Notes: a model not told the origin generated them from the sequence alone. DNA of 64,000 nt from Minisyncoccota bacterium (GCA_018062305.1 JAGOSK010000001.1:19005-83004); one strand, 5' to 3'. Shown: positions 5,332 to 50,920, numbered from the stretch's first letter. Numbers and translations are program-made.

Positions 5332-5343
5332 AATGTGCCAATA

Positions 5344-34217: not shown

Positions 34218-35237
34218 ATGTTACACGACGCGTCGAATTCACTTCAACAAGAAGGTTCACAACCACTAACTCATTTTGCCAAAAAGTCTCTGGGTCAGAA
34301 TTTTCTGAAATCAGAACGTGCACTGTCAGATATGGTAGAAGCGGGGGATATTCAGGCGGGCGAGACTATTATTGAAATTGGACCAGGGAAAGGGGCACTT
34401 ACGACAAAGCTACTAGCAAAAATCAGTGAAATTAACGAAATAGACTCAAAAAGTAAGTCGCCGAGCGGAACCAAGCTAGTTTGCATTGAAAAGGATGACA
34501 GGCTTATTCCATTTCTTGAAGAAGAGTACAAAGATGCCATAGATAAAGGGGTTTTAGAGATAATTCACGGAGATATTATAGAAATTCTCAATAATAAGGA
34601 GCAGATCGGGGGTATTATTGCGGGCGCCGGGGTCACCAGGAAATCTGCTGAGAAGCAAAATAAGCCTTATAAAATTATTGCGAACATCCCGTATTACATA
34701 ACCGGCCTTATTTTTAGGGGTATTTTTGAGCTTGAGCATCTTCCAAGTAAAATCGTCATGCTTGTACAAAAGGAAGTGGCAAATCGAATCATGGCTTATG
34801 GTGATAACGGGGAACAGAGCGGAAAAGAAAGCATTCTTTCAATAAGCATCAAATTGTATGGCGAACCTCGACGAGTTTCCATTGTTCCGCGTGGTGCTTT
34901 TGTACCAATGCCAGCAGTGGACTCCGCTATTATCGCTGTTGAAAATATTCAACGTAAGATTCCAAAAGCTCAAGATTCTCTATTTTTTGACATGATTCAC
35001 AACGCTTTTTCACATAAACGAAAACGATTAGCTAAAAATCTTGAGAGCTTCCTAGTAAAATCTTCGACCGACAATTCAGGTGACAATTTGAGCGACAATA
35101 TAGGTAAAAAACAAATCAAAAATCGCACCTCTGCAGACTATGAGAAAGTATTTACTGAGCTCGGTCTAGATAAAAATGTAAGAGCTGAAGATATTTCAAT
35201 AGAAACATATATACAACTATTTAAACGATTGATATAA
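34218..35237 (+). CDS. rsmA: 16S rRNA adenine dimethyltransferase RsmA/KsgA with insertions
   Basis: LGQNFL, IIEIGPGKGALT and ANIPYYIT motifs. Confidence 0.8.
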   Translation: MLHDASNSLQQEGSQPLTHFAKKSLGQNFLKSERALSDMVEAGDIQAGETIIEIGPGKGALTTKLLAKISEINEIDSKSKSPSGTKLVCIEKDDRLIPFLEEEYKDAIDKGVLEIIHGDIIEILNNKEQIGGIIAGAGVTRKSAEKQNKPYKIIANIPYYITGLIFRGIFELEHLPSKIVMLVQKEVANRIMAYGDNGEQSGKESILSISIKLYGEPRRVSIVPRGAFVPMPAVDSAIIAVENIQRKIPKAQDSLFFDMIHNAFSHKRKRLAKNLESFLVKSSTDNSGDNLSDNIGKKQIKNRTSADYEKVFTELGLDKNVRAEDISIETYIQLFKRLI

Positions 35238-35265
35238 TAGGTGGAGCATCTTTATATATCACTCT

Positions 35266-36141
35266 ATGTATCCTGAATCAAAAAATCGTAACATCCTTCC
35301 TCATACAAAAATTTTAGCACTGGGTGCGATATGTATTTCTATCATTGGTATTATACTAACATCCAAAATTTCTACAGAGCGAAGATTGCTTTTGGAAAAT
35401 CAATCAAACCTATCTGTGACAGCAGGAAAATCTGAAGAACAAATATTGGCAGACAAGAAGGTAATTGAGGCTCTAAATAAGGCTAAAGTAGATAGTTTGG
35501 GAGCGCTTGCTAGTTCTACAAACCCGTTTGATCCATCACCAAAAGATAGTGTGAGTGATAGATTTACCAAAGATATATTTTCAGCGTATTTAAAATATGA
35601 GAAGGATGGTGTTTTACCTGACGGTGATTCATTGATTCAAAATTTAGAATATCTTGATGTGAATGATATTACTAAAAATAAATATAGTTTGTCATACTTA
35701 AATATTTTTGCACCAACAAACAAAGAGCAAGTGAAAGCGTATGGAAACGAATATGCTCGTGTGTTTTTACAAATAGTTGATCCAGTGGCAAAAAACACAT
35801 TCAAATATCAAAGCGATATAAACAATATGGTGCCAATATACAGAAGTTTGGGTGAAAATCTTCTCAAAATAAAAGTTCCAAGTGCTGTTGCAAATGAACA
35901 CCTCGAGCTGGTAAATCAATATCTCAAACAAGCAGATGCATTCATCCTCGTCGGTGGGGAAGTAAAAGATCCTGTCAAAGCATTGCTTGGGCTTCAGGTT
36001 ATCCGAGAGGGAATGCCAACACAGGTGCAGATGTATACAAGGATTAAAACCTATTTTAGCCAAAATGATATACTATTTGAGAAAACAGAACCTGGCTTTT
36101 TTTGGAATGTAGGAACAACAACAGTTTCACTTATACAATAA
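35266..36141 (+). CDS. Hypothetical N-terminally anchored protein; first gene of the T4SS-like cluster
   Basis: One N-terminal TM helix (ILALGAICISIIGIILT). Confidence 0.45.
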   Translation: MYPESKNRNILPHTKILALGAICISIIGIILTSKISTERRLLLENQSNLSVTAGKSEEQILADKKVIEALNKAKVDSLGALASSTNPFDPSPKDSVSDRFTKDIFSAYLKYEKDGVLPDGDSLIQNLEYLDVNDITKNKYSLSYLNIFAPTNKEQVKAYGNEYARVFLQIVDPVAKNTFKYQSDINNMVPIYRSLGENLLKIKVPSAVANEHLELVNQYLKQADAFILVGGEVKDPVKALLGLQVIREGMPTQVQMYTRIKTYFSQNDILFEKTEPGFFWNVGTTTVSLIQ

Positions 36142-36145
36142 TTTT

Positions 36146-37330
36146 ATGAACAAACGCTTCTTTAAAATAAACCAATTCGTCACAGTTTTAGTGTCTATCA
36201 GTGTTTTTATGTTTAGTGTCCCTAGTATTTCTAATGCTCAAGTACAGGCTATCCCATTAAATGAGCAGGGATACGTGCAAGCCGTAGCGGTACCCGACGG
36301 ACAAGCGGACGCATACAACTCTGACACATCAAATGCAACTGGAGCATCAGGATCTGCAAGTGGGGCAGTATCAGACGCTCTTGGGTGTTCTGCATCTGGA
36401 CTTCTTGGACAAGCAGTTTCTATGGGTCTCAAGTCGATGGTGGGAAGTGCAGCAACAGGTGCCCTCTCGTCTGTAACTAGTGATGCTGTTCCTATTACAT
36501 CCAATTCTTCAATGGATAACCTCGCAAACATAAAATCTTCTTCCGACGCAAACGCCTCAGTGAATGCCATCCAACAGATTTTTGGGGTCTCATTTGGGGC
36601 AAGTTTTAACGGTATTGCATTCTGTATTGTAAATGGACTCATAACATACATCGCAAACTCCACTATCGCATGGGCAAACTCTGGTTTCCAGGGAAATCCT
36701 GCTTTTCTCGAGAACCCTGAGAACTTTTTTCAAACTCTAGCTGACAGAACCGCCAGTGGATTCATCTCAAATCTCGCCTACAACACTACAGGTATCAACG
36801 TCTGTGAACCATTTCGAGTAGACTTAGCCATAGCCCTTTCAGAATCATATGCTGGCGGACAAGGCACAGCTGGTCAAAATCGACTTAGTTGTAGTATGGA
36901 CCAAATGGGATCAAACTTTCAAAACTTTGCAAACGGAGGGGGTATAGGGGGTGGAAATGTCCAAGGATACTGGAGTAATTGGAATCAGCTTCGACAAGAT
37001 GAAAATAATCCAGCGGGTAACTATCTAAAAGCAGGCGAGTACCTCCGTGCTCAAATAGCTGTAAAGGAAAATACTGCCAAGTTCGAGCTAGGGCTCAACA
37101 ACGGCTTCCTCAACTTCAAAAAGTGTGAGGATCCTGTAGCGGCTAAAAAAGGAGACTTGAGTAGTTGTAAATCAACAACTCCCGGCTCTATTATCCAATC
37201 TTCTCTCCAAGACACCCTCAATCTTGGCAAACAAAGACTTGTTTCAGCTGACAAGATTGACCAGGTTATCACCGCACTCGCAAACGCTCTTATAAAGAAG
37301 GCTTTGAACAAAGTACTCGAGCAAAACTAG
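36146..37330 (+). CDS. Hypothetical secreted Gly/Ser/Ala-rich protein
   Basis: Signal peptide ...FMFSVPSISNA|QVQA. Confidence 0.5.
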   Translation: MNKRFFKINQFVTVLVSISVFMFSVPSISNAQVQAIPLNEQGYVQAVAVPDGQADAYNSDTSNATGASGSASGAVSDALGCSASGLLGQAVSMGLKSMVGSAATGALSSVTSDAVPITSNSSMDNLANIKSSSDANASVNAIQQIFGVSFGASFNGIAFCIVNGLITYIANSTIAWANSGFQGNPAFLENPENFFQTLADRTASGFISNLAYNTTGINVCEPFRVDLAIALSESYAGGQGTAGQNRLSCSMDQMGSNFQNFANGGGIGGGNVQGYWSNWNQLRQDENNPAGNYLKAGEYLRAQIAVKENTAKFELGLNNGFLNFKKCEDPVAAKKGDLSSCKSTTPGSIIQSSLQDTLNLGKQRLVSADKIDQVITALANALIKKALNKVLEQN

Positions 37331-37393
37331 AGAAAAATAAGTGGAGAATAAGTGGAGATTTTTTACTTTCTTTTTTAAAATGATGTATAATTC

Positions 37394-39460
37394 ATGAGTA
37401 TATACATGACTGGAAGTTATTTTCACAAAAAAATAATTCTTATTGTTGCACTTGCGTCTTTTTTGATTGTTGGGTTTTTTCCATCAACCACACAAAGCGC
37501 CGTTACTGCGACAGACCTTTTAAAATTAACTAATCCTACTACAGCTGCCATCGGAGCTGTAAATATAGCCACGGATACATTCGGTAATGGTAAGGCTACA
37601 CAAAATGACCAAATTTACTGCCTTAAAACAACCGGAGTCACTGATGGTTATGTACCCGATATTAGTATCCCCGGCTGTGCTGCCTATGTTTCTTTTACTA
37701 TCCTCCAGGTCGCTTCTTGGGTACTTTGGGTAGCAGCCATTCTTTTCAACAAAACCCTTGGCTACACACTGAACATGGCAGGGTTCATAAAAGATATACC
37801 AATAGTCGCAGTTGGTTGGACAACCTTCAGAGATGTAACCAACTTGATGTTTGTCTTTATTATCCTCTATATTGCGATCAATACTATTATAGGAAACGAA
37901 GGTTATGGTATTAAAAAACTTCTTGGAAAAGTAATTGTAGGAGCGATGCTTATAAATTTCAGTTTGTTTTTTACCCAAATAGCGATTGATGCTTCAAATA
38001 TATTTGCATTACAGTTTTACAACAAAATAACAGTATCGGCTCAAGGTCAAAATATATCTTCAGGAAAAGATGGGAGTAACACCGACTGGGATGCGGGTAT
38101 TTCTGCGGCATTTGTAAATGCTATGGGTCTCCAACAGATCTATTTCTGGGGGAAGGGGGCACAGTCTTCTGGAACTGGAGAGGGTGCAGACTTGAACGAC
38201 GTAAATGGTTCGACCAAACTTGGCCTAAATCCAGGAAACATGATACTTGTAGGATTAGGAGGAACCGTACTTGTACTCATCACTGCATTTGTATTTTTTG
38301 CGGCAACATTTATGTTTTTTATGCGAACTATTACATTAATGTTTTTGATGATTTTATCACCAGTAGCATTTATGGGAAACATTCTCCCTGCTCTAGGAAA
38401 GCACACAGGAAAATGGTGGAGTAAACTCACAGATAATCTATTATTTGCTCCTACATACATGATGCTTTTGTATCTCGTAATGAGCATGCTCACCAGTGGT
38501 GCTTTCAAAGGAATAAACGGTAAGGGGAGTAATTTTGCAGATATGTTCGCAGGTGGTACAAGTTGGACTGGTGCAGTGATGACTTTCATTGTATTAGTTT
38601 CACTCATGTTTGGTTGTCTAATCATTGCGGTCTCGTTTGGTGCTAGTGGTGCAAAATGGGCTGAGAAATTTGCTAAAGACGGGTCACTTTCTTTTGGAAA
38701 GTGGGCTGGAGGGGGTATTGCAAGAGGTGGAGCTGGTCGGCTGGGAGACTTTGCATCAAGTAGTAAATATTTGGCGAATATTAGTGCGAGGAGCCCGAAC
38801 TCCTTTGTTGGTAGATCTGCTGCTGCACTTATGCAGAGGGGTGACAAGCTAAAAGATGTAAAGATTGCAGGTAAAAGCTTTAATGAACGAGTGAAAGAAA
38901 AGCAAAAAGATTATACAAAGAGAGGAAATCTAATTGAGAAGGCATTACTTGATGTTGGTGATGCACCAATAAACCCTGGGGCAGGTGCTTCTCTGGCAGC
39001 ACAAACAGCATATAACACAGAAAAGACTGCATATGACACAAGAGTGGCACAAGCAAAAACAGCTGCGGCAAAAGCAGAAAAAGACTATCTTGGAGGAAAA
39101 AGATTTTCATATGCGAGTACAGCAGCTATGAAAAAGGCAGCAAAAGCAGCACAGGGTACAGATAACAAAGAGGCTTTGGAAAACCTCATATCCAAAACAG
39201 GTAAGTGGTCTCAAGATGAACATAATAGAGCCAAGGATACAATCGAAAAAGATGAAGTTGATGCAAATGGTAATGTAATAACCCAGTCTTTGAATAATCA
39301 AATTAAGGAATTAAGACTCCAATCTAAAATACCTGGAGCAGACCTTGGAAGAATAAACCAACAATTATCTATTATAATGGGAGAAAAGAAGGAACTAGAA
39401 GTTATTATCAAGGGCCACCTTGATACAGTTGGTAAATTAAGTAACCTCGAATCAAAATAA
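37394..39460 (+). CDS. Polytopic membrane protein, VirB6/TrbL-like candidate, with a C-terminal Lys/Ala-rich coiled-coil tail
   Basis: At least six hydrophobic helices after a signal sequence, then a hydrophilic tail of about 270 aa. The position and topology match the VirB6 class. Confidence 0.5.
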   Translation: MSIYMTGSYFHKKIILIVALASFLIVGFFPSTTQSAVTATDLLKLTNPTTAAIGAVNIATDTFGNGKATQNDQIYCLKTTGVTDGYVPDISIPGCAAYVSFTILQVASWVLWVAAILFNKTLGYTLNMAGFIKDIPIVAVGWTTFRDVTNLMFVFIILYIAINTIIGNEGYGIKKLLGKVIVGAMLINFSLFFTQIAIDASNIFALQFYNKITVSAQGQNISSGKDGSNTDWDAGISAAFVNAMGLQQIYFWGKGAQSSGTGEGADLNDVNGSTKLGLNPGNMILVGLGGTVLVLITAFVFFAATFMFFMRTITLMFLMILSPVAFMGNILPALGKHTGKWWSKLTDNLLFAPTYMMLLYLVMSMLTSGAFKGINGKGSNFADMFAGGTSWTGAVMTFIVLVSLMFGCLIIAVSFGASGAKWAEKFAKDGSLSFGKWAGGGIARGGAGRLGDFASSSKYLANISARSPNSFVGRSAAALMQRGDKLKDVKIAGKSFNERVKEKQKDYTKRGNLIEKALLDVGDAPINPGAGASLAAQTAYNTEKTAYDTRVAQAKTAAAKAEKDYLGGKRFSYASTAAMKKAAKAAQGTDNKEALENLISKTGKWSQDEHNRAKDTIEKDEVDANGNVITQSLNNQIKELRLQSKIPGADLGRINQQLSIIMGEKKELEVIIKGHLDTVGKLSNLESK

Positions 39461-39461
39461 T

Positions 39462-40145
39462 ATGAGCAATATAAACCAAAAAATTTATTTGCAAAAGATG
39501 GAAGATAGTCCAGAAGCTATCAAAAAATATGTTTCGGGTATATTTTTAGATAATTCTTATTTAACTTTTTTGGAAAAATATCGAAACACACTACCAAATA
39601 AACAAGATGTGGCTGACATATTACAAAATGAGGTTTTACTTTTTCTTATAAAAATAAATAGTATTGAAGCTTTTATTGAAAACTTTGTTGAAATATTGGA
39701 TGTCAAACCATTAGATGCCGAAAAAATCCTGGAAGATTTTTTTACTATTTGTATTCCTAAAGAAGTTCAGAATTTAATAAAAGAACTCAATCCGATGCAG
39801 AATGGAGGAAACAAAATCGAAGAAGCAAAACTCACCGATCCAGAACACATCTCACACCACGATCTCCTTAGTGAAATAGAGAATCCAACTCCATCAATCA
39901 GCACGACGACCGATTTTCAAAATCAAAACTTTGTTAAAAGTTCTCAACCGCAAGCAAATACTCCAGTAGTAAAAACATCAGCAAACAAAGGGATAAATAC
40001 AGCCACTACAAACACATATACAAATCCAGCCTTAAACATAGCCACAAAATTAGATCAGAAACTCTCAACACCCTCTGCTTCCATTCCAAAAGATATATAT
40101 GTATCGAAGAAACCAGATCCATATCACGAACCGGTAGACTTATAG
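39462..40145 (+). CDS. Hypothetical protein
   Basis: 227-aa ORF coupled to the upstream stop codon. No motif recognised. Confidence 0.45.
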   Translation: MSNINQKIYLQKMEDSPEAIKKYVSGIFLDNSYLTFLEKYRNTLPNKQDVADILQNEVLLFLIKINSIEAFIENFVEILDVKPLDAEKILEDFFTICIPKEVQNLIKELNPMQNGGNKIEEAKLTDPEHISHHDLLSEIENPTPSISTTTDFQNQNFVKSSQPQANTPVVKTSANKGINTATTNTYTNPALNIATKLDQKLSTPSASIPKDIYVSKKPDPYHEPVDL

Positions 40146-40188
40146 TAGACCTATAGACCAGCCCTGCAATTAATGTAAAATACAAGAA

Positions 40189-40524
40189 ATGACCAACCCC
40201 CAGCAAAACTCCATAGAACTCGCAAAAGAAAAATTTGAACTACTACCAGAGGACGCTCAGTCTGCAATCAGAGATTTTGAGTACGACAAAGCACTCAGAG
40301 AGATTCACGAAATGTACAAACTACATATCGACCAAGCTTCATCACTCGAAAAAGCTGTGGCTGATGTTATTTTTGGTGAAATAGAAACAACACAACTCAT
40401 TCCTATCTTGCAAAACGAATTGCGGATAAGCCCTGAGATGGCACTCAAACTCAGTATCGATGTTGATGCAAAAATACTTCGACCACTCCAAGAAAAAATG
40501 AAAGTGATTCAAGCGCAGGTATAA
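40189..40524 (+). CDS. Hypothetical small protein
   Basis: 111-aa ORF. Confidence 0.4.
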   Translation: MTNPQQNSIELAKEKFELLPEDAQSAIRDFEYDKALREIHEMYKLHIDQASSLEKAVADVIFGEIETTQLIPILQNELRISPEMALKLSIDVDAKILRPLQEKMKVIQAQV

Positions 40525-40628
40525 ACATCAGCGGAGGCACAAACACATCACGCGCGCATAGTAATAAGCGCAAGAAATATTATCAAAATATCAATGGTGA
40601 TATATTTTAGTGATATACTTGTAACATA

Positions 40629-41096
40629 ATGCGTTATCAGGTACCACAATTTATTGAGGTAGAAGACAAAATATTCGGGCCTTTTACATTCAAACAATTC
40701 GTATACATGGCAGGAGGGGCTGGTATTTGTTTTATCGCCTACCGAGCAGTCCCACTTTTTTGGGCAATTCTCATTATGCTACCAGCCGGGGGTTTTGCTG
40801 CGGCATTGGCATTCTACAGACCGAACAATAGACCGTTTATCAACACCATAGAATCTGCGTTCAACTATCTCATTACCCAAAAACTCTATATATGGAGGAA
40901 AATAGATAAAAAAGTAGAACAAAAAAGCGCCGTAGAAATACTCGAGGCGGTCAAATCTTCTATCTCAGTTCCAAAACTCTCAGAAAGTAGACTCAAAGAT
41001 CTCGCATGGAGTCTCGACATCAACGAAACGGTGTATTCAAGACAATCCGGTAAACTTCAAGGGAGAACTGATGCGCAAAGTAAAAAGACATTTTAA
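40629..41096 (+). CDS. Small two-TM membrane protein, VirB3/PrgI-like candidate
   Basis: Two adjacent hydrophobic helices (FVYMAGGAGICFIAYRAVPLFWAILIMLPAGGFAAALAF). It sits upstream of the VirB4-like ATPase, as in Gram-positive T4SS loci. Confidence 0.4.
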   Translation: MRYQVPQFIEVEDKIFGPFTFKQFVYMAGGAGICFIAYRAVPLFWAILIMLPAGGFAAALAFYRPNNRPFINTIESAFNYLITQKLYIWRKIDKKVEQKSAVEILEAVKSSISVPKLSESRLKDLAWSLDINETVYSRQSGKLQGRTDAQSKKTF

Positions 41097-41157
41097 AACA
41101 GTCTAAAGAAATATCTTATAGTTTCCAAAACAACACTTCTTACTATATAATTGCACT

Positions 41158-41808
41158 ATGGCTACAGAAGCAAACAATGCAAAACCAACACAGTCATTTG
41201 TTCCTATAAAAGAGATTCGCGATGGTATCATTGTGCTCAAAGATGGTTCACTTCGTTCTATTCTCCTTGCTTCTTCACTCAACTTTGCTCTCAAATCTTC
41301 TGAAGAACAACAATCAATTATTTTTCAATTTCAAAACTTTCTAAACTCAATTAACTTTTCCATTCAGATTTACACTCAGTCTCGAAGGCTCGATATACGC
41401 CCATACATAGCCCTCCTAGAGGAACGACTTAAGGAGCAGGTAGGGGATTTGATGAAAATGCAAACTCGAGAATATATAGAGTTTATCAAAAGTTTCACCG
41501 AGTCTACCAGTATTATGACCAAAAGCTTTTTTATAGTTGTTTCGTACTCTGCCCCAGCACTCGGAGGTACGACAGCTATAAAAAAGTCATTTTTTGGAGG
41601 GGGTGGTACAAAGAAAGAACAGGAAAAAACAACATTTGAAGAAAGTAGGAGTCAGCTCCAACAGCGAGTCGAGGTAGTGGAGCAAGGGCTCGTTCGATGT
41701 GGTATCCGTATTGCAAGCCTTGGAACAGAGGAGCTTATTGAATTGTTTTACAAAACATTCAATCCAGGGGATATAGAAAAGCCAATTCACTTAACGCAAA
41801 ATAAATAA
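41158..41808 (+). CDS. Hypothetical protein immediately upstream of the VirB4-like ATPase
   Basis: 216-aa ORF. Its stop lies 5 nt before the next start. Confidence 0.45.
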   Translation: MATEANNAKPTQSFVPIKEIRDGIIVLKDGSLRSILLASSLNFALKSSEEQQSIIFQFQNFLNSINFSIQIYTQSRRLDIRPYIALLEERLKEQVGDLMKMQTREYIEFIKSFTESTSIMTKSFFIVVSYSAPALGGTTAIKKSFFGGGGTKKEQEKTTFEESRSQLQQRVEVVEQGLVRCGIRIASLGTEELIELFYKTFNPGDIEKPIHLTQNK

Positions 41809-41813
41809 CATAT

Positions 41814-43742
41814 ATGGCATTCCTCGATTTTTTAAAACCTAAACAAACAAAGAGCAATCCTATTGCGTCAGTTCTTCCACAAGAAATCTACCAAAGTGGT
41901 GTATTGGAACTTCAAGACATCATCGCTCCATCTGCTCTAAAGGTTACACCGCGTGCTCTAAACCTCGGCGACAAGCTCGTGCGAACATTCTTTGTTATTT
42001 CATATCCTCGATTTCTTTCAGAGAGTTGGTTTGCTCCGGTTATCAACCTCGACAAGATTTTTGATATTTCTATTTTCATTCATCCTATCGACACAGCTTC
42101 AGTACTACGAACATTCCAGAAAAAAGTAGCTGAAGTACAAAGTCAGATACACATGAGAGAGGAGAAAGGGCTCGTGCGTGATCCAATGCTCGACACTGCC
42201 TACCAAGACCTCGAATCACTTCGAGACAATCTTCAGCAAGCTCAGGAAAAAATCTTTGATGTAGGGCTCTACATATCAATCTACGGAGACAGTGAGCAAG
42301 ACCTAGACAAAATCGAGTCAGAAGTGAAGTCTATTCTTGAATCAAGTCTCGTATACCTCAAGCCTGCTCTTTTCCAACAGGAACAAGGTTTCAAAAGTGT
42401 GCTTCCGATCGCTGACGACCAGCTCAACATTCACTCAAAACTTAATTCTGCGCCACTTTCGAGTGTGTTTCCATTTATTTCATTCGACCTTACTTCAGAC
42501 AAGGGTATTTTGTATGGTATCAACAGACACAACTCTTCACTTATCCTCTTTGATCGATTCTCACTTGAAAACTACAACTCTATTACTTTTGCTAAGTCTG
42601 GTTCTGGAAAATCATATACAACCAAGCTCGAAATCCTTCGATCTATGATGTTTGATACAGACGTGATAGTACTCGACCCTGAGCGAGAATATGAATATCT
42701 TGCTGAAGCTACAGGAGGACGATTCTTCAACATCTCTTTGAGTTCTGAGCACCACATCAACCCCTTTGACCTTCCTACTCCACGTGAAGACGAGGCAAGT
42801 GCCGACGTACTTCGATCAAACATTATCAACCTTGTAGGACTTTTCCGAATCATGCTTGGAGGACTTACACCTGAAGAAGATGCTATCGTAGACCGAGCTA
42901 TTACAGAAACATATGCCCTCAAAGATATCACTCCTGAGTCCAACTTTGCAGCGGTAGAACCACCACTTATGTCAGACTTCGAACTCGTACTCGCAGGTAT
43001 GGAAGGAGGGGAATCACTCGTACAACGACTCACAAAGTATACAAAGGGTACTTGGGCAGGATTTATCAACCGTCCTTCAAACGTAGACATCAACAAGAAG
43101 TTCGTGGTGTTCTCAATGCGAGACATGGAAGACGAACTCAAGCCAGTAGCGATGTATATCGTAATGCACTTCATTTGGAACCAGATTCGAAAAGAGCTCA
43201 AGCGACGACTTATGGTTATTGATGAGGCATGGTGGATGATGAAATCAGAAGATACCGCTTCTTTCCTCTATGGACTTGCAAAACGAGGACGAAAATACTA
43301 TCTAGGACTCGCTACAATCACTCAGGACGTGGAGGACTTCCTCAAGTCACCTTATGGACTACCTATTATTACAAACTCGTCTATTCAGCTTCTACTCAAG
43401 CAGTCGCCATCATCTATTGATATTGTGCAAAAGACTTTTAACCTTACCGACGAAGAAAAGTATCTACTCCTCGAGTCTGATGTGGGAGAGGGAATCTTCT
43501 TTGCTGGACTTAAACACGTTGCTATCAAGGTTATTTCTTCATATACAGAAGATCAAATCATCACATCTTCTCCATCACAGGTTTTGGATATGAAAAAGGC
43601 TAGAGCGGACCTCGCAACGAAAGGACTGGTAACAGAAGATCAGGTGAGTGGAAATATCAGCGCAAGTAATACATTTATGGATAATATGGAAGCTGAAGGA
43701 AAGAGAAACATAGCAGATATAAAAGCGGAGCAAAATCTGTAA
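41814..43742 (+). CDS. VirB4/TrbE/PrgJ-family type IV secretion ATPase
   Basis: Walker A FAKSGSGKSYT, the VirB4-typical Walker B LMVIDEAWWMM and the LGLATITQ motif. The N-terminal region resembles the Gram-positive VirB4 N-domain. Confidence 0.75.
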   Translation: MAFLDFLKPKQTKSNPIASVLPQEIYQSGVLELQDIIAPSALKVTPRALNLGDKLVRTFFVISYPRFLSESWFAPVINLDKIFDISIFIHPIDTASVLRTFQKKVAEVQSQIHMREEKGLVRDPMLDTAYQDLESLRDNLQQAQEKIFDVGLYISIYGDSEQDLDKIESEVKSILESSLVYLKPALFQQEQGFKSVLPIADDQLNIHSKLNSAPLSSVFPFISFDLTSDKGILYGINRHNSSLILFDRFSLENYNSITFAKSGSGKSYTTKLEILRSMMFDTDVIVLDPEREYEYLAEATGGRFFNISLSSEHHINPFDLPTPREDEASADVLRSNIINLVGLFRIMLGGLTPEEDAIVDRAITETYALKDITPESNFAAVEPPLMSDFELVLAGMEGGESLVQRLTKYTKGTWAGFINRPSNVDINKKFVVFSMRDMEDELKPVAMYIVMHFIWNQIRKELKRRLMVIDEAWWMMKSEDTASFLYGLAKRGRKYYLGLATITQDVEDFLKSPYGLPIITNSSIQLLLKQSPSSIDIVQKTFNLTDEEKYLLLESDVGEGIFFAGLKHVAIKVISSYTEDQIITSSPSQVLDMKKARADLATKGLVTEDQVSGNISASNTFMDNMEAEGKRNIADIKAEQNL

Positions 43743-43845
43743 AATTTATAATCTGCAAAAACTATAAAATCCCGAGTGTGTGCTCGGGATTTTATGTTAA
43801 TTAATCACACATTTGCAGGTGGGGTAATAAAATGATGTACAATAA

Positions 43846-44475
43846 GTGCATATGATAGTATTCGATCCAGATAGTCCTAGTAATTTACAATCAGATAACC
43901 TACGCACAGGCAGTAGGACTGGTTCTGCTTCAGGAGATATGCTTGCAGAGCAAGGCGATCAAGCTGAAAACGAGCTCGCGGGGCGAGGTGAACGTGGTGA
44001 ACAGTACAAACAACAAACTCGTCAGCAACGATTCATGACACAGAGAATGCGAGAGTTATCTGAAAAGGACACAACAAACGGAAACTCACAAGTTCGAAGA
44101 CCACGAAACGAGAGATTTAAAAACCAAAAGGAAGACCAGCCAACCAAATTTGGTAGATCAGATGTTGTGATCATGTCGGTTGTGGCACTTATGTTTGACG
44201 GAGTAGGGGGAATCATCAGTCTGCTTGATTTTATTATTCCTCCAACTGGTGAGTTTATAAACAGTGTCACCGTTTTTCCTTTAGCTACACTTACCTTGTA
44301 TACGATGTATAAACATCGGGGGGTTGAATTTAAAGATACAAAGGTACTTGTTCGATTTTGGGGAAGTCTATTGATCGGCTTTATACCTATAGTGGCAATA
44401 CTTCCTGAATATTTTTTAAATGTAATCTTGGTTTCAACAGTAATGAAAGCTGAGGAAAAGATAAAGAATTTATAA
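43846..44475 (+). CDS. Hypothetical membrane protein (charged N-terminus, three C-terminal TM helices)
   Basis: ORF with hydrophobic helices in the C-terminal half. Confidence 0.4.
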   Translation: MHMIVFDPDSPSNLQSDNLRTGSRTGSASGDMLAEQGDQAENELAGRGERGEQYKQQTRQQRFMTQRMRELSEKDTTNGNSQVRRPRNERFKNQKEDQPTKFGRSDVVIMSVVALMFDGVGGIISLLDFIIPPTGEFINSVTVFPLATLTLYTMYKHRGVEFKDTKVLVRFWGSLLIGFIPIVAILPEYFLNVILVSTVMKAEEKIKNL

Positions 44476-44509
44476 TTGTTTGATATAATAAGAAAGATCA
44501 CCTTACTAT

Positions 44510-45694
44510 ATGAATAAGAATTTTACTGAATTAAACAAATCAAATATTAGAAAAGGTCATGCAGCCCAGGTTGGCATAGCTTTTGTTCTCATTATATTTT
44601 CTTTATCATTTTTTAATATTCACTCTGATACTCAAAAAGCGCAAGCTCAGGAAACGCCAAATTTCGGTAGTTCTAATTTTATGGAATCTAATCTAGCACA
44701 GACAACAGGTGAACCAGGCACAGGCGACCCAAGTATCCCATTTACATCAAAATTTCCTCAAATAAAAGAGCAATTAGTCGTTGAAGTTAGCCCTGAAATA
44801 CCGAAACCTGGCGACACTGTGACTATTTCAGCAGAACTGTATGGAGATATTGATTTAAATTCAACCCTCATATCATGGAAAAAAAATGGGGTTGTAGAAC
44901 TCAAAGGAATTGGTAAGAAAGAATTCAGTTTTGTAATGGATGCTACTGGAAAACTCACAACGATAGATTTTGAGGCAACTCCAACAAATGCGCCAGCTAT
45001 TACAAAAACCTGGAGCTTTGCACCCGTAGATGTAGACATACTCTGGCAAGCAAACACATACACACCACCTTTCTACAAAGGTAAGGCTCTTTTTACACCC
45101 GAATCAAATGTCACTTTTATAGCCCTACCAAACATACTCATAGGAGGAAAGCGTGTGGACTCATCAGATGTAGTATACAAATGGAAAGTAGACAGAACTG
45201 TAGATGGAGCAAACTCTGGTTTTGGAAAAAGTTCGTATGACTTTACTGGCTCTATTATTCTAAAGCCGACTCTCATACAAGCTGAGGTCTATGCCGCGGC
45301 AAACAGTGCCTACAAAGGTATAAATGGATTTCAAATTTCCCATGTGTTTCCACAAGCACTTGTTTATGAAGATAGTCCACTATATGGCATCTTATTCAAT
45401 AAAGCTCTTCGTAATCAATATACTATCAAGAGTGATGAGGTTGAATTGTCAGTAATTCCATATTTCTTTAGTACAGAAGGAAAAAACAGTGCGGTCACAT
45501 ACAAGTGGGACCTCAACACTTCATCACTCTCTCTACCAGAATTTCAAAATTCTGCAGTATTTCGAAGAAAGGACAACAAAAAAGGTTCTGCAAATGTGTC
45601 TATCACAATCGGCAATCCTTCAAAAATATTGCAAAAATCAAGCGCTGTCTTGGGTTTAATTTTCAATGAAAAGAATAGTGGTTTTGGGCAGTAG
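44510..45694 (+). CDS. Hypothetical secreted protein
   Basis: N-terminal signal/anchor (VGIAFVLIIFSLSFF) followed by a beta-rich domain. Confidence 0.5.
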   Translation: MNKNFTELNKSNIRKGHAAQVGIAFVLIIFSLSFFNIHSDTQKAQAQETPNFGSSNFMESNLAQTTGEPGTGDPSIPFTSKFPQIKEQLVVEVSPEIPKPGDTVTISAELYGDIDLNSTLISWKKNGVVELKGIGKKEFSFVMDATGKLTTIDFEATPTNAPAITKTWSFAPVDVDILWQANTYTPPFYKGKALFTPESNVTFIALPNILIGGKRVDSSDVVYKWKVDRTVDGANSGFGKSSYDFTGSIILKPTLIQAEVYAAANSAYKGINGFQISHVFPQALVYEDSPLYGILFNKALRNQYTIKSDEVELSVIPYFFSTEGKNSAVTYKWDLNTSSLSLPEFQNSAVFRRKDNKKGSANVSITIGNPSKILQKSSAVLGLIFNEKNSGFGQ

Positions 45695-45787
45695 TATACG
45701 GGTTAAATAAGAGTATAAATAGGCAAACAAACTTTTTTGCTTATTTATAACTTATAGAGATTAACTTATTTTGATATACTTATCTTT

Positions 45788-47152
45788 GTGAAGCACAAAC
45801 TAATCCATAAAATAGCTTATATATTTTTTATATTGGTTTGCTTTTTAAATTCATTCCTGACTGTTTTTGCAGCAGGGGCTTATTCCGATCTTGAAGCAGG
45901 GACATATACAGCAACTATCGAAAACTTTGCAAACAGCGGAAAAACGCAAACCTTCCAGATGGTTCTTATTCCTGATATAAACGGATATCTATATTTAGAT
46001 CGTGAAAAAACCAACATTCCAATCAAAGACTATTCGGGGGATAAGGATTACTTACCCGACGAACTTACCTATAAAAACGCAAACGGAAAAGAGGTTACAT
46101 TTGATCTCAGATCCACATCAAGAATCGATAATACGAGTGGGGCTATAAAAGTTGATGGTAAAGGAAATCTCACTTCACCAACAATTACTCAGACCGAAAC
46201 AAAACCAGTGGTGACTCTCGGAGCCACCACCCCTCCCCCAAACTCAAACGCTGGCTCATACACATTCCTTGCACCACTACCGTTCTTTGGGGGTCCATCA
46301 ATAAATATTGCAGAGGGAGGACTTGCTGGGTATTTAGATGGATTGTACAAAGCCGGTATTGCTGTAGCTACCGGGTTAGCACTCATTATGATTGTTGCAG
46401 GAGGTCTTGAGTATGCATCAGCTGGTTCTGTAGGAGGGAAAGATGGGGGAAAGAGTAAGATTAAAAATGCACTCATTGGATTACTACTTGCTTTGACTTC
46501 ATTCATCATATTGCAACAGATTAATCCTGGTCTCATTCGAAATGATTTGGCAGTAGATGCCACCAAGGCAGTAGGGGGTATTACCGGGCAGACGGTGGAT
46601 TTGGTTGATTATACCAACACAACATTAGGAAATCTGTATACACAGGGTATAATTGATGGATCGTTAGGAAACAATCCTGGGTCATTTCCAGGAAGTGGCG
46701 TCTTATCTACATCTGCGGTCGCGGCACGAATAGTGCAATCTGCTAGAGCAAATCTAAATGAATCAACTTGTTTCCCTGTTACAGAATACGGAAGAAGAGG
46801 CTGTGGCTATGCTTTTGGAAAGATAATGAGCGACGCTGGTGTTAATTTTACTAACCTAAACTCAAGTTCGGTCTTATCTACATCAAACATATATAGTGTT
46901 TTAGCAACCGACCAAAGGTTTACACTTGTTTCTATAAACGATACACGAAACGCCCTTCCGGGAGATATTATTATTTCACCAACAACATCTGTGGCAACTG
47001 GTCACGTAGGAATTATTGAACAAGCTGGTGCTGGAAAAATAATATCAAACAGTAGTAATGCTGGTTCAATTCAAGATTATTTTACTGGTCAAAAATGGTT
47101 AAATTATTACGGAGGAAAAGGATTAAAAACTTATATTTTTAGATATCGATAA
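45788..47152 (+). CDS. Secreted protein with a VirB2/pilin-like double-helix segment and a C-terminal CHAP/NlpC-P60-like hydrolase domain
   Basis: Signal peptide. Central segment AGIAVATGLALIMIVAGGLEYASAG...ALIGLLLALTSFIILQQ, two hydrophobic helices split by a charged loop. C-terminus has Cys in RRGCGYAF and His in TGHVGII. Confidence 0.5.
   Translation: MKHKLIHKIAYIFFILVCFLNSFLTVFAAGAYSDLEAGTYTATIENFANSGKTQTFQMVLIPDINGYLYLDREKTNIPIKDYSGDKDYLPDELTYKNANGKEVTFDLRSTSRIDNTSGAIKVDGKGNLTSPTITQTETKPVVTLGATTPPPNSNAGSYTFLAPLPFFGGPSINIAEGGLAGYLDGLYKAGIAVATGLALIMIVAGGLEYASAGSVGGKDGGKSKIKNALIGLLLALTSFIILQQINPGLIRNDLAVDATKAVGGITGQTVDLVDYTNTTLGNLYTQGIIDGSLGNNPGSFPGSGVLSTSAVAARIVQSARANLNESTCFPVTEYGRRGCGYAFGKIMSDAGVNFTNLNSSSVLSTSNIYSVLATDQRFTLVSINDTRNALPGDIIISPTTSVATGHVGIIEQAGAGKIISNSSNAGSIQDYFTGQKWLNYYGGKGLKTYIFRYR
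46225..46607. repeat. 383-bp segment 100% identical to 47720..48102 (copy 1)
   Basis: Compared base by base. It encodes the pilin-like segment in both genes. Confidence 0.9.
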
Positions 47153-47174
47153 AAAGAATGTATAATATATTGGT

Positions 47175-48617
47175 ATGTATATACGAAATCTACTTTTAGT
47201 TTTTATACTAGTATTTAATTTTTTATTGCCTTCTTTTACGTATTCTGCAGTAGCAGTAGGAAATCTGGTTAAATTGCAAAGTGCGAACGAGGTGTCTGAG
47301 GTTTCTATTGAAAAAAGCTACTACACCCCCGGGGCAGACCAGAGCAAAGCTACAAACTTCCAATTTATATATCAAAAGACTGCAGCTGATAACTATCAAC
47401 TTTCACAGGTCTTCGTACAAGATAGTAAGACTGGAGCGTTTGTAGACTCGACGTCTAAGTTCACAGAACAAATTCAGCGACAACCTCAATTTGAAGTTGT
47501 ATCAAAACAGGATATGTATCAGTACAAAATAGGTGCTCGAGATTTTCAGGAGGAAATTGCCCAAAAACAACTAAACACAACAGCATCTGTTAATAGTAAT
47601 ACAAACCCCGAGTTAGGTTTTAGGGATGGAACGAACCCAGATGATATTTTTAGAACCACAATGAATAATCTTCCGGGTAATACAGTAGGAAACCCTGTAG
47701 CAGTAGTACCTTCAACAAGCACCACCCCTCCCCCAAACTCAAACGCTGGCTCATACACATTCCTTGCACCACTACCGTTCTTTGGGGGTCCATCAATAAA
47801 TATTGCAGAGGGAGGACTTGCTGGGTATTTAGATGGATTGTACAAAGCCGGTATTGCTGTAGCTACCGGGTTAGCACTCATTATGATTGTTGCAGGAGGT
47901 CTTGAGTATGCATCAGCTGGTTCTGTAGGAGGGAAAGATGGGGGAAAGAGTAAGATTAAAAATGCACTCATTGGATTACTACTTGCTTTGACTTCATTCA
48001 TCATATTGCAACAGATTAATCCTGGTCTCATTCGAAATGATTTGGCAGTAGATGCCACCAAGGCAGTAGGGGGTATTACCGGGCAGACGGTGGATTTGGT
48101 TGCTGGAGGGGGTACAATAAATCAAATAATCCCTCCGGGACAACCAGGTAGTTATGTCTTAGCAAACAATGAAAACCCTTCAACAGGAACAGTTTTTAGT
48201 AATTATTCAAGTTTAAAACAATTATTAAATAGCCTTCCAAGTGGACCGAGATCTACAGATGGAAGTCTTATTTTTACAAATTATTGGAACGGAGATACAA
48301 ATACAAATCAACAGCGAGGAAACAACTGCAACCTTTTGGTATCTGGCTCAGTAGCACTCTCACCAGACCTTATATCTAGATATAATCCAAAAAAAGGGGC
48401 AGCAGTATATGTAAATGGTTTATTGGTTGGCTACTTTGACGACACAACAGGTGCAACAACACTGGGATATGTTGGAGGAACTCTTATTAGAAATACTATA
48501 GATATATATGATCCCAACCGAACTCTTGGATCAGTTCTTAAAAAAATGCCTCCAAATAGTTGGTATTTAGTATTTGGAACACAAAGAGCTCAAACACCAA
48601 ACCCTTGTCCTCGATAA
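47175..48617 (+). CDS. Secreted protein with the same VirB2/pilin-like segment and unrelated N- and C-terminal domains
   Basis: Signal peptide and the identical 127-aa cassette. The C-terminal domain is of unknown function. Confidence 0.5.
   Translation: MYIRNLLLVFILVFNFLLPSFTYSAVAVGNLVKLQSANEVSEVSIEKSYYTPGADQSKATNFQFIYQKTAADNYQLSQVFVQDSKTGAFVDSTSKFTEQIQRQPQFEVVSKQDMYQYKIGARDFQEEIAQKQLNTTASVNSNTNPELGFRDGTNPDDIFRTTMNNLPGNTVGNPVAVVPSTSTTPPPNSNAGSYTFLAPLPFFGGPSINIAEGGLAGYLDGLYKAGIAVATGLALIMIVAGGLEYASAGSVGGKDGGKSKIKNALIGLLLALTSFIILQQINPGLIRNDLAVDATKAVGGITGQTVDLVAGGGTINQIIPPGQPGSYVLANNENPSTGTVFSNYSSLKQLLNSLPSGPRSTDGSLIFTNYWNGDTNTNQQRGNNCNLLVSGSVALSPDLISRYNPKKGAAVYVNGLLVGYFDDTTGATTLGYVGGTLIRNTIDIYDPNRTLGSVLKKMPPNSWYLVFGTQRAQTPNPCPR
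47720..48102. repeat. 383-bp segment 100% identical to 46225..46607 (copy 2)
   Basis: Compared base by base. Confidence 0.9.
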
Positions 48618-48722
48618 GCTCTCACACCTACAAATTCCAACAAAACGATTTTTTGTATTCACACATGTAATACAAAACAATCACTAGCTCTCAATTATAT
48701 ATAACTGTATAATTAAACAAAC

Positions 48723-50180
48723 ATGATATCGAGAAGAACTTCTTTTATAATAATTATTGTAGTTTTAAGTTTGCTTGTGGGTGGGCTCATTGGTTTCTAT
48801 TTTTATACAAAGAATAAAAATCCCGGATCAACTATTTTAGGTAATCGAATAGGGGGGAGAACTAATTTTGGAGGATATGACCCGGACAATCAAACTGCGA
48901 CATCGAGTACAAATACCAATACGAGCACCACAACACCTATCACTAACGACATTGTGCCAGTCAATACAAAAGTTCCGAAGCTTCGTAAAATAAGTGACGT
49001 TCCTACTGCTGGTGTAGATTTTGTCACGATACCCATATATGAAGACACAAATAAGAATGTCGAACCAGCTGACCTTTCTGTTTCAAAAACAAAAGTTCCA
49101 GTAAAAAAACCGCTTAAATTTATTGGAAACAAAACGGTAGTTCGATATATAGAAAGAGCGACAGGACATATCTATGAAACAGCAACTAGCTCACTCGAAA
49201 AAGTTAGAATTTCCAATACAACGGAACCAAAAATATATGAAGCTTATTTTACCAATAGAGGAGATAACCTTATTTTAAGGGGTCTCATTGGTAGTTCGGA
49301 TATTATCAGTACACGATATGCATCACTAGTGCTCGCATCCACAACTGATACAGAGAGTGAATTTTCTAAAATATTAACAACCAAAGATCTGCCAATCCAG
49401 ATTTCACAGGTTGCCATTTCACCTAGTAAAACTCAGCTATTTTCGATTTCACCATCAGGAGTCAGAGGAATATTATCAAAAATTGATGGCGGTTCTACTG
49501 TTGGTATCTTTGATACACCATACAGAGAATGGATTCCATCATGGCCAGAAGAAAAAAACATTGTTCTCACCACTAGAGCATCTGGATTTGCGCCTGGTTT
49601 TGCATATATATTAAATACACCAACAAGACAAATCACTCGAATCCTCGGAAATATCTATGGACTAACAACTCTCACTTCACCAGATCTATCAAAAGTACTA
49701 TTTAGTTCAAGTGAACGAGGTACTTTTACTCTCAATTATTTAAATAGAAAAGACTCATCTATCTCAAACCTCTCATTTAAAACTCTTCCTGAAAAATGTA
49801 TCTGGTCTAAAAAAGATAGGAATGTTCTGTTTTGTGCTGTTCCAGAAAACATCGCATTTAGTACATATCCTGATGTTTGGTACCAGGGTCTTATAAACTT
49901 CTCAGACTCTATTTGGAGAATAGATATAAACACAGGTGAAACAAGACTTATTATGAACATCCAGAACGAATCTGGTGAAGTTATAGACGCTACAAACCTT
50001 TATGTGAGTGCCGGTGACGACTATCTCGTCTTTACAAACAAAGTAGACCTCACACTTTGGGGACTACAACTCGTTCCACCCGTCGAAGACACCACCGCCA
50101 ACCCACTAGATACTATCAACTCAATAAATAAAGCCTCAACAACATCTTCTTCGACAGCCCCAACAACACCTACAAACTAG
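48723..50180 (+). CDS. Hypothetical N-terminally anchored protein with a probable beta-propeller-like ectodomain
   Basis: N-terminal TM helix (FIIIIVVLSLLVGGLIGFYFY), a Thr/Ser-rich linker, then a long beta-rich domain. Confidence 0.45.
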   Translation: MISRRTSFIIIIVVLSLLVGGLIGFYFYTKNKNPGSTILGNRIGGRTNFGGYDPDNQTATSSTNTNTSTTTPITNDIVPVNTKVPKLRKISDVPTAGVDFVTIPIYEDTNKNVEPADLSVSKTKVPVKKPLKFIGNKTVVRYIERATGHIYETATSSLEKVRISNTTEPKIYEAYFTNRGDNLILRGLIGSSDIISTRYASLVLASTTDTESEFSKILTTKDLPIQISQVAISPSKTQLFSISPSGVRGILSKIDGGSTVGIFDTPYREWIPSWPEEKNIVLTTRASGFAPGFAYILNTPTRQITRILGNIYGLTTLTSPDLSKVLFSSSERGTFTLNYLNRKDSSISNLSFKTLPEKCIWSKKDRNVLFCAVPENIAFSTYPDVWYQGLINFSDSIWRIDINTGETRLIMNIQNESGEVIDATNLYVSAGDDYLVFTNKVDLTLWGLQLVPPVEDTTANPLDTINSINKASTTSSSTAPTTPTN

Positions 50181-50920
50181 GCTTTCTTCTCTTCTTTCTT
50201 AATATTTTTTCTAAAATAAAGTTCCTGACCAATTGTAAATATACTTCCAGTAATCCAATAGAGAGCAACGGCACCCGAAACAGACAAACACACAAAGAAC
50301 ATAATCACAGGCATTACATATCTCATCTGAACATTCATACTTTTTGCTAAATCATCACTAAAAGAAGGGTTTTTTGAGGGGTTAGCTGGGGGAGTATAAG
50401 CAGGAACAGACAATCGAATCTGTACAAACTGGGCGAGACCGGCAAAAATACTCAAAATAATACTTCTACCACCAACATCCACCAAACCAAGAAACAAGGT
50501 TGTAACAACAGCTGGTATCTGCACAAATGAGTACAATAAATCAGTCTTGATAGTTGGCAAACCTCCACTTATAAAGATATATGCCAAAGCAATGATAACA
50601 GGGAGTTGGAGGAGTATGAGGAAAAAACTAGCAAACGGGTTTAGGTTGTTTTTTCTATAAAACTCGAGGGTTTTTCGTCCAAATTCCTCTCTATTACTTC
50701 CATATTGCTCCTTTATCTTAGCCAATTCAGGCTCTAACACTTTCATTTTTAACTGTGTTTTTGTTGCCTGTTTTGATAATGGAAAAAGTACCAACTTTAC
50801 CAAACAAGTAACAATAATAGTCGCTAAACCAACATCTCCACCAGGAACGTGATTAATAACAAAAACCAAGAGGTTATATAAAGGATCATAAAAAGCACTG
50901 TGAAATAGTGATGAAATCAT
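50177..50920 (-). CDS. yidC: Membrane protein insertase YidC (short form)
   Basis: Five TM helices with the conserved YidC/Oxa1 core. It lies in the rpmH-rnpA-yidC context. Confidence 0.85.
   Translation of the reverse strand: MISSLFHSAFYDPLYNLLVFVINHVPGGDVGLATIIVTCLVKLVLFPLSKQATKTQLKMKVLEPELAKIKEQYGSNREEFGRKTLEFYRKNNLNPFASFFLILLQLPVIIALAYIFISGGLPTIKTDLLYSFVQIPAVVTTLFLGLVDVGGRSIILSIFAGLAQFVQIRLSVPAYTPPANPSKNPSFSDDLAKSMNVQMRYVMPVIMFFVCLSVSGAVALYWITGSIFTIGQELYFRKNIKKEEKKA

Follow-up and report, generated by a model that had tools for sequence, protein, structure and literature searches.

Core genes, synteny and conservation of the locus

The stretch of DNA analysed here, a window of 64,000 nucleotides (nt) from a Minisyncoccota bacterium (GCA_018062305.1, JAGOSK010000001.1:19005-83004; all coordinates are window positions), contains at 35266-50180 a cluster of genes related to type IV secretion systems (T4SSs). 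The interval is filled by 13 open reading frames (ORFs), here g1 to g13, all on the plus strand and separated by gaps of 1-105 nt, and nine of the 13 encoded proteins carry a signal peptide or membrane anchor (Table 1). An initial sequence-only reading had described 13 co-oriented genes between rsmA and the yidC-rnpA-rpmH/dnaA block, and both this layout and the identity of the flanking genes were confirmed.

Table 1. Coordinates of the cluster genes, of repeated or structured elements, and of surrounding genes in the window.
Feature	Position	Strand	Description
g1	35266-36141	+	bitopic, one transmembrane (TM) segment (residues 14-32), ~250-aa extracytoplasmic domain; conserved first gene
g2	36146-37330	+	Sec-signal protein, mostly helical, conserved cysteines; directly upstream of the VirB6 gene
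g3	37394-39460	+	extended VirB6/TrbL-like polytopic membrane protein with long C-terminal coiled-coil domain
g4	39462-40145	+	soluble, low-complexity C-terminus, no TM segment; poorly conserved
g5	40189-40524	+	small soluble protein, probably helical, no TM segment
g6	40629-41096	+	PrgI/VirB3-like membrane hairpin protein, two genes upstream of virB4
g7	41158-41808	+	TrsD-like, VirB4 N-terminal domain as a separate gene immediately upstream of virB4
g8	41814-43742	+	VirB4-family ATPase, central and C-terminal domains (motor)
g9	43846-44475	+	membrane protein, charged and probably disordered N-terminus, two or three C-terminal TM segments; variable
g10	44510-45694	+	signal-anchored all-beta protein, probably Ig-like domains; conserved surface component
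g11	45788-47152	+	signal peptide, orphan N-domain, VirB2-like pilin hairpin, C-terminal NlpC/P60-CHAP-type peptidase domain
g12	47175-48617	+	signal peptide, orphan N-domain, identical pilin hairpin, orphan C-terminal domain
g13	48723-50180	+	bitopic, one TM segment (residues 7-25), TolB/DPP-IV-type beta-propeller-like ectodomain; conserved last gene
Pilin cassette copy 1	46225-46607	+	exact 383-nt direct repeat
Pilin cassette copy 2	47720-48102	+	exact 383-nt direct repeat
Palindromic hairpin	43764-43795		13-bp stem, core CCCGAG...CTCGGG, A/T-run flanks, directly 3' of the virB4 stop codon
rsmA	34218-35237		Pfam RrnaAD; cluster begins 28 nt downstream
yidC	50177-50920	-	convergent, 4-nt overlap with the cluster end
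rnpA	50924-51292	-	
rpmH	51344-51490	-	
dnaA	51647-52993		
dnaN	53275-54381		
ComM-like Mg-chelatase-family ATPase	29004-30761		just upstream of rsmA and the cluster
LysM + Peptidase_M23 wall hydrolase	30803-31918	-	3.3 kb upstream of the cluster, opposite strand
UvrD/PcrA helicase	32033-34123		just upstream of rsmA and the cluster
Xer-like tyrosine recombinase	25181-26242	-	9 kb upstream of the cluster
Hammerhead_3 match	17108-17161	-	intergenic
Protein of 585 aa without family match	1877-3634	-	in the type IV pilus region (1877-8441)
Pseudopilin-like ORFs (several)	3689-5331	-	type IV pilus
PilC-like platform protein	5344-6555	-	type IV pilus
PilB/GspE ATPase	6666-8441	-	type IV pilus
Second PilB/GspE ATPase	60987-62795	-	

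Judged from sequence, the cluster encodes a T4SS membrane core of VirB6 (g3), VirB3/PrgI (g6) and a VirB4 split into a TrsD-like protein (g7) and a motor (g8). In a hidden Markov model search g8 matched NF045971 ("VirB4-like conjugal transfer ATPase, CD1110 family") with 366.6 bits, above the curated cut-off of 325, the match spanning only profile positions 178-733 of 752, and its Walker A (AKSGSGKS) and Walker B (LMVIDE) motifs are intact. It also matches P-loop_TraG (92 bits), AAA_10 and DUF87 of Pfam and, more weakly, TraC and VirB4_CagE. The missing end of the model is found in g7, which matches positions 2-122 of the NCBIfam CD1110 VirB4 model, falls in the TrsD/TraD family (TrsD, 30.7 bits) and carries a precomputed Pfam TraC-like match; hhalign aligned the profile of its family with residues 23-198 of the VirB4 of the Clostridium botulinum plasmid pCDC3875 (P 87%, E 3.9e-6). 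Because almost all of the 79 other loci with a g7 gene encode it as a separate ORF of ~210-220 aa, the g7/g8 split is an established two-gene arrangement and not a sequencing error. At one related locus (L018, 9335-11788) ORF extension, and ORF extension only, gives a single 817-aa frame across the g7 and VirB4 regions. The g6 protein, with two adjacent hydrophobic segments, scores 39 bits against Pfam PrgI (gathering score 27), is found in 78 other loci and is likely the membrane anchor for VirB4. The sequence-only reading had assigned g8, g3 and g6 to the VirB4, VirB6/TrbL and VirB3/PrgI types, and these assignments stand. It had, however, listed g7 as unknown, which the matches above correct.

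Relatives of VirB4 were collected with each species represented by a single genome, and the best 80 loci, with VirB4 identities of 76-97%, served as the comparison set. All are from metagenome-assembled genomes (MAGs) of Patescibacteria, and the label is in most cases Paceibacteria, Parcubacteria or a candidate phylum belonging to these; many TPA records carry the label "Saccharibacteria", wrongly, we suspect. A "Candidatus Pacebacteria" MAG encodes a protein, KBB54_01015, with 100% identity to one of the window proteins, and the host is a member of the Paceibacteria, not of the Saccharibacteria. A comparison of synteny with loci of the candidate phyla radiation, which the sequence-only reading had proposed, gave the same order in all comparable Paceibacteria loci: g3-g6-g7-g8-g10-g13-yidC(-)-dnaA in 47 of the 47 loci holding all eight markers, and uvrD-rsmA-g3-g8 in 41 of 41.

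Conservation, expressed as the median protein identity to the window protein, falls from the cytoplasmic motor to the exposed parts of the system. The median is 80% for VirB4 (79 species) and 63% for the TrsD-like g7, compared with 58% for DnaA, 53% for UvrD, 52% for PrgI (g6), 48% for DnaN, 39% for RsmA and 29-33% for g3, g2, g10 and g13. The ATPase core is thus more constrained than DnaA, while the exposed parts diverge fast. The closest species (L001, JAIPIA010000002.1), aligned to window positions 32406-45693, diverges very unevenly: protein identity is 97% for VirB4, 94% for TrsD and 91% for UvrD, and 52% for VirB6, 40% for g4 and 56% for the pilin protein, with nucleotide identity at 87% in virB4 and 66-70% in rsmA-g1 and virB6. 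The L001 contig stops within the pilin region.

Since gene order is identical across species and VirB4 is more conserved than DnaA, the cluster is best read as a vertically inherited core locus and not as a mobile element. Its GC content (38.8%) is, as had been stated earlier, like that of the rest of the window (38.2%). We saw no direct repeats bracketing the cluster, such as flanking att sites would have left, and no tRNA gene lies beside it, the nearest being more than 13 kb away. The earlier statement that no relaxase or VirD4/TraG coupling ATPase lies in or beside the cluster also holds: neither a relaxase nor a VirD4/TcpA-type coupling ATPase was recognised in the window (ten large or unknown ORFs searched by Pfam, the remainder judged from translations), and there is no replication gene of plasmid or phage kind in it. 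The other large P-loop proteins of the window are two PilB/GspE ATPases, ComM, UvrD and RuvB. The accompanying claim that no integrase is present is correct for the immediate surroundings but has to be qualified for the window as a whole, whose only integrase-family gene, the Xer-like tyrosine recombinase gene, is separated from the cluster by housekeeping genes. Taken together, of the marks of a conjugative element we recognised no relaxase, oriT or coupling ATPase in the window, no integrase with att repeats at the cluster borders and no patchy presence among comparable genomes, and the suggestion of a resident secretion or host-contact apparatus is supported.

Pilin-module proteins and a repeated cassette

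The g11 and g12 proteins (454-480 aa) each carry a two-helix hydrophobic hairpin, which had been called VirB2/pilin-like from the sequence alone. Taken by themselves the two hairpins score 15-16 bits against PF18895 (T4SS_pilin), below the gathering score; PF18895 is, however, matched by 38 of the 43 family members from related loci (best E 4.7e-10), one of which also matches TrbC/VirB2, and the pilin call is upheld on this basis. A CHAP/NlpC-P60-like hydrolase had likewise been predicted. The C-terminal domain of g11 matches CHAP at 17.4 bits, below threshold, and is 33-38% identical to the C-terminal domains of proteins at loci L002 and L067 that pass the NlpC_P60 gathering score. It also holds a Cys...GHVGII pattern, read by eye, that is typical of papain-like amidases. 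Through this homology g11 would supply a VirB1-like cell-wall hydrolase, in agreement with the prediction.

Among relatives, the domain that follows the pilin module differs: some have NlpC/P60 or CHAP there, L007 has 3D, and for most the domain is not recognisable. In the tandem pair of L002 one gene carries NlpC/P60 and the second SLT, two activities that are combined in the VirB1-like hydrolases of Gram-positive T4SSs (PMC12102498). No relative of the N-terminal domains of g11 and g12 or of the C-terminal domain of g12 occurs in the 80 related loci. For the g12 C-terminal domain there is no Pfam match and no PDB sequence match, only two true relatives were found among 5.8 billion proteins, and an exact look-up of the g12 sequence returned no record. 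A motif seen by eye had raised the possibility that this domain is a 3D/DPBB lytic transglycosylase; it was dropped as unsupported, given the lack of a Pfam or PDB match, the dissimilarity to the 3D-domain protein of L007 and the near absence of homologues.

While g11 and g12 are only 49% identical as whole proteins, the segment encoding the linker and pilin hairpin is repeated in both genes with 100% identity over 383 nt, and on either side similarity falls at once to the random level. The repeat is not an artefact of assembly. Short-read contigs from five independent assemblies, one at NCBI (JAGONH010000032.1 of GCA_017993115.1) and four Logan contigs that each come from a different run, agree with the window at 100% identity and stop precisely where the repeat does, at position 46607, or roughly one k-mer inside it, at position 46254. 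A swap of the downstream halves (giving N11-module-C12 and N12-module-C11) is possible in that it is compatible with the contig data.

All five other loci with at least two pilin-module genes likewise show near-identical module pairs at the nucleotide level (L002, 94.3%; L003, 94.3%; L007, 99.7%; L012, 90-94%; L067, 95.7%), so that, with the window counted in, the cassettes of a pair share 90-100% identity in all six genomes. Between genomes, in contrast, the window module shares only ~36-55% protein identity with the modules of the others. This combination of high identity within and low identity between genomes suggests that gene conversion has acted repeatedly, or that the module alone has been duplicated recently and more than once. 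A published survey gives a maximum of 54% identity within a pilin array (PMC12102498), a figure that presumably refers to whole proteins and fits the value for g11 and g12; a comparison of that kind would hide a cassette mosaic. Neither a pilin-hydrolase fusion, nor mosaic pilin proteins, nor homogenisation of a cassette within a genome was found in the literature searched.

Remaining genes and chromosomal surroundings

Four further components, g1, g2, g10 and g13, are conserved and exported and still lack an assigned role. The g1 and g13 proteins share a bitopic topology. A g1 homologue stands at the corresponding place in 30 other loci (median identity 25%), and g1 has no sequence match in Pfam, NCBIfam or the PDB. 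Present in 66 loci, with C359 and C371 invariant, g13 has a family profile that matches the TolB propeller region (E 2e-4), and single members match DPPIV_N and PD40. The g10 gene is present in 75 other loci; 10 of 41 members of its family match BiPBP_C and others match Ig_3 or PKD, and the family profile weakly matches the phage Hoc immunoglobulin (Ig)-like protein in the PDB (E 0.005). For g2, found in 56 loci with invariant W176, G180, C220, C249, C327 and C341, there is again no Pfam, NCBIfam or PDB sequence match. Its AlphaFold2 model has a predicted local distance difference test score (pLDDT) of 57.6, and the Foldseek matches of this low-confidence model were uninformative. An SLT transglycosylase domain is fused to two g2 homologues. 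One distant member of the g2 family matched DUF4141 (E 1.3e-5), a family belonging to the conjugative transposons of Bacteroidetes; the match was not reproduced in 68 closer homologues or in 10 other members, and this possible assignment was not adopted. Profiles of g1, g2, g3, g10 and g13 gave no sequence match to structures of VirB8, TraM, PrgL or TcpC.

Three genes are poorly conserved. We detected g4, which has no Pfam or NCBIfam family match, in only four loci, and g9 in only six; public gene calls for g9 begin at 43852 and give a protein of 207 aa. The third is g5, for which larger relatives stand at the same position in 23 loci. That g4 and g5 might be paralogous repeats was considered and dropped as unsupported (BLASTP E 0.048).

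Between dnaA and dnaN, a stretch of ~200 nt (53008-53214) holds five DnaA-box-like sites with no more than one mismatch each, and a further two are found just upstream of dnaA. As these sites cluster beside dnaA, it is reasonable to describe the gene cluster as lying next to the origin. The type IV pilus genes and the T4SS are both in this origin-proximal region. A relative of the LysM and Peptidase_M23 hydrolase encoded upstream occurs in the neighbourhood of 9 of the 80 loci, and M23 and LysM domains are known from some VirB1-like proteins (2025 survey, PMC12102498).

Scans of the region for promoters and terminators gave counts equal to chance expectation. The palindromic hairpin behind virB4 could act as an attenuator, or as a terminator in both directions, separating virB4 from the surface genes that follow it. 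We also noted a 16-mer, TAAAATGATGTAYAAT, containing the extended -10-like sequence TGTATAAT, of which there are exactly two copies (37376-37391 and 43828-43843), each ending 2 nt ahead of an annotated start, that of g3 and that of g9 respectively; a copy with three mismatches lies at 47151-47166, 8 nt before g12. These copies may be candidate internal promoters, possibly of short-leader or leaderless transcripts. Elsewhere in the window, the intergenic gap between two small minus-strand ORFs contains a match to Rfam Hammerhead_3, the type III hammerhead ribozyme (50.0 bits; gathering score 48.5).

Function and relation to known systems

We conclude that the locus is very probably a chromosomal, vertically inherited T4SS of Paceibacteria that arose from monoderm conjugation machinery of the MPF_FATA class and was repurposed away from relaxase-driven conjugation. 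A monoderm ancestry is indicated because the best curated VirB4 family is the Firmicutes CD1110 family, an MPF_FATA model, because the nearest plasmid VirB4s are those of Bacillota and Actinomycetota (at most 36% identity), and because the core gene order is shared with pCDC3875. By analogy with established T4SS knowledge, on which all the following steps draw, VirB3 and the TrsD-like domain would dock a VirB4 hexamer onto the VirB6 platform, and VirB4 would extract pilin hairpins from the membrane and assemble them into a short pilus or tube. Opening of the peptidoglycan, be it the cell's own or that of the host, would fall to the variable domains attached to the hairpin, of which one or more is a wall hydrolase, and g10 and g13 might form or decorate a wall-spanning, host-facing part. 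Such an apparatus would act at the contact between epibiont and host, where neither a relaxase nor, to judge by this locus, a dedicated coupling protein would be needed to move proteins or macromolecules derived from the host.

Several points weigh against this interpretation. The evidence is genomic. The absence of a coupling protein refers to the window, and one may lie elsewhere in the genome. In the sequence-profile comparison no VirB8-like component was recognised in the cluster, the predicted model of g2 is unreliable, and the roles of g1, g2, g4, g5, g9, g10 and g13 are positional guesses. The putative hydrolase activity of g11 depends on its homologues and on catalytic-type motifs read by eye, and the C-terminal domain of g12 has no family assignment in Pfam, the PDB or the search of 5.8 billion proteins. 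Finally, pilin modules with domains of 150-180 aa on both sides may not polymerise unless processed, and those of g11 and g12 could be mere two-helix membrane anchors.

As to the direction and cargo of transport, protein export and the import of host macromolecules are both live options. The better placed of the two, though we would not bet on it, is an exporter like Bordetella Ptl or Brucella VirB that pushes out or displays Sec-exported proteins (the pilin-hydrolase fusions, g2, g10 and g13) without a coupling protein. The many signal peptides and anchors in the cluster fit this idea, T4SSs working without a type IV coupling protein (T4CP) exist in Ptl and Brucella VirB (PMC12102498, PMC12857230), and protein export or an alternative role has been suggested for the T4SS of Southlakia epibionticum (Wang et al., PMC10633639). 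Apart from the wall hydrolase, however, the cluster encodes nothing effector-like in which a toxin or enzyme domain could be recognised, and Sec export in a monoderm already passes the membrane, which makes the need for a T4SS less obvious.

A little less probable still is a system that is mainly an importer, similar to the archaeal Ced system, in which a VirB4-like ATPase serves DNA uptake; through it the epibiont would take in nucleic acids (RNA or DNA) or further cytoplasmic contents of its host. Some support for import comes from a 2026 report of host-RNA uptake whose authors link VirB4 to macromolecule transfer (bioRxiv 10.64898/2026.06.21.733656), and the window's lack of relaxase and T4CP, the wall hydrolase tethered to a pilin module and a weak match of g8 to CedB (36 bits) are compatible with it. 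Yet that match is far under the CedB cut-off of 700 and there is no CedA or CedA1/2, the authors of the report themselves call the mechanism unresolved, and the viability of S. epibionticum is unaffected by loss of comEC-dependent DNA uptake (PMC12857230), an observation that says nothing on RNA.

That the locus serves only as an adhesive pilus or anchoring structure, with no translocation, seems improbable. Pilin modules, variable surface domains and Ig-like and propeller-like surface proteins would all suit such a structure, but the extreme conservation of the VirB4-VirB3-VirB6 core would then be hard to explain, and the window also encodes type IV pilus genes (PilB, PilC and pseudopilins), the type IV pilus being the structure experimentally tied to adhesion in Saccharibacteria (PMC12857230). 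An integrative conjugative element or its decayed remnant, lying near the origin by chance, is excluded for practical purposes: all recognisable parts do descend from conjugation machinery and a tyrosine recombinase gene is found within 9 kb, but the cluster keeps its place and gene order in all comparable loci of other species, VirB4 exceeds DnaA in median identity, composition is that of the surrounding genome, bracketing repeats, an adjacent tRNA gene, relaxase, T4CP and replication gene are all missing from the window, and the recombinase is Xer-like in architecture and set off by housekeeping genes.

Within the preferred reading of a repurposed secretion system, the cassette invites a more speculative proposal, to which we give little weight: the VirB2-like hairpin might be an interchangeable "handle" read by VirB4/VirB6, the fused domains fast-evolving payloads at the host surface, and gene conversion the process that keeps the handles identical. 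If so, the payloads would be the wall peptidase of g11 and the orphan N-terminal domains of g11 and g12 and C-terminal domain of g12, displayed or delivered, and identical handles would co-assemble while payload swaps track host envelopes. Combined with the reported feeding on host RNA, this would make the apparatus a feeding tube that breaches the wall and owes its specificity to the exchange of cassettes. Independently of this proposal, the pilin hairpin behaves like a homogenised cassette within mosaic proteins, one of which has a wall hydrolase, and it therefore offers a testable idea on how pilus and wall-opening functions are coupled in monoderm T4SSs.

Among known systems, Bordetella Ptl and Brucella VirB resemble the present locus in being T4SSs that work without a coupling protein. 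They differ in being diderm MPF_T systems with outer-membrane cores of VirB7, VirB9 and VirB10, none of which is present here. The archaeal Ced system (CedA/CedB) is likewise built on a VirB4-like ATPase and lacks a relaxase, and it sets a precedent for inward transport; it differs in its CedA-type partners, whereas the VirB3, VirB6 and pilin modules found here are of bacterial type.

Closer are the Gram-positive conjugative systems. On pCDC3875, whose gene order VirD4-x-VirB6-PrgI-x-VirB4-x-SLT hydrolase is the ancestral one, VirB4 belongs to the same CD1110 family and the core order VirB6-PrgI-x-VirB4-x-hydrolase is the same; pGO1 shares the placement of TrsD ahead of VirB4, and these systems also lack outer-membrane core components. 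When all cluster-family profiles were compared with the proteins of the pCDC3875 T4SS region by hhalign, only the alignment of g7 with the VirB4 N-terminus was informative, the method being weak enough that PrgI against PrgI reached a P of 3%. In contrast to the present locus, pCDC3875 has VirD4 beside VirB6, and the Gram-positive conjugative systems lack VirB2-like pilins, have one large VirB1-like protein where here hydrolase domains are fused to pilin modules, and are mobile where this is a fixed chromosomal locus.

Judged by its features, the locus is a member of a kind already described, the Patescibacteria-clade T4SS reported by Wang et al. (2023) and by Quinonero-Coronel et al. (2025), systems which a 2025 review calls notable newcomers to the superfamily (PMC12857230). 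They are thought to be central to how a large, mostly uncultivated bacterial branch lives on other cells, and are essential in the one species tested genetically: in S. epibionticum the cluster SEML1_0006-0019, which resembles Gram-positive conjugation systems and has essential pilins but no recognisable coupling or relaxase proteins, is required for epibiotic growth (Wang et al., 2023, Cell, PMC10633639). Tubes that reach the host have been seen in a cultivated patescibacterium and may, according to the authors, be T4SS pili (bioRxiv 10.64898/2026.06.21.733656). A survey of 3,035 genomes (Quinonero-Coronel et al., 2025, Microb Genom, PMC12102498) found that Patescibacteria VirB4s form a monophyletic clade nested in MPF_FATA; that genes for TrsD, PrgI, VirB6, VirB1 and VirB2-like proteins lie near virB4; that only 103 genomes have relaxases; that VirD4-like genes occur in most genomes, mostly far from virB4; and that in Paceibacteria the T4SS is close to dnaA, dnaN, rnpA, rpmH and ksgA, for which a gene-dosage effect was suggested. 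The missing relaxase, the TrsD protein, the pilins and the dnaA/rnpA/rpmH/ksgA neighbourhood are thus already in print (PMC10633639, PMC12102498), and the same is true of all elements of the sequence-only interpretation, which was correct.

The present locus agrees with this clade in being chromosomal and monoderm, in having a TrsD-like gene adjacent to virB4, PrgI/VirB3, VirB6, nearby VirB2-like pilins and wall hydrolases downstream of virB4, in lacking a relaxase near virB4, and in its dnaA, dnaN, rnpA, rpmH and ksgA surroundings. As a proxy for its placement, VirB4 is 76-97% identical to that of the 80 Patescibacteria loci and at most 36% to any plasmid VirB4. The window adds no new kind of system, and what it provides is a Paceibacteria example that is clean, contiguous throughout and assigned gene by gene. 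S. epibionticum has an array of six pilins in place of the two pilin-module genes found here. The sole increment over the literature searched, a modest one, lies in the mosaic pilin proteins and the homogenisation of their cassette within a genome: where the surveyed arrays reach at most 54% identity, the modules here are embedded in large mosaic proteins and are identical, nucleotide for nucleotide, over the full length of the repeat.

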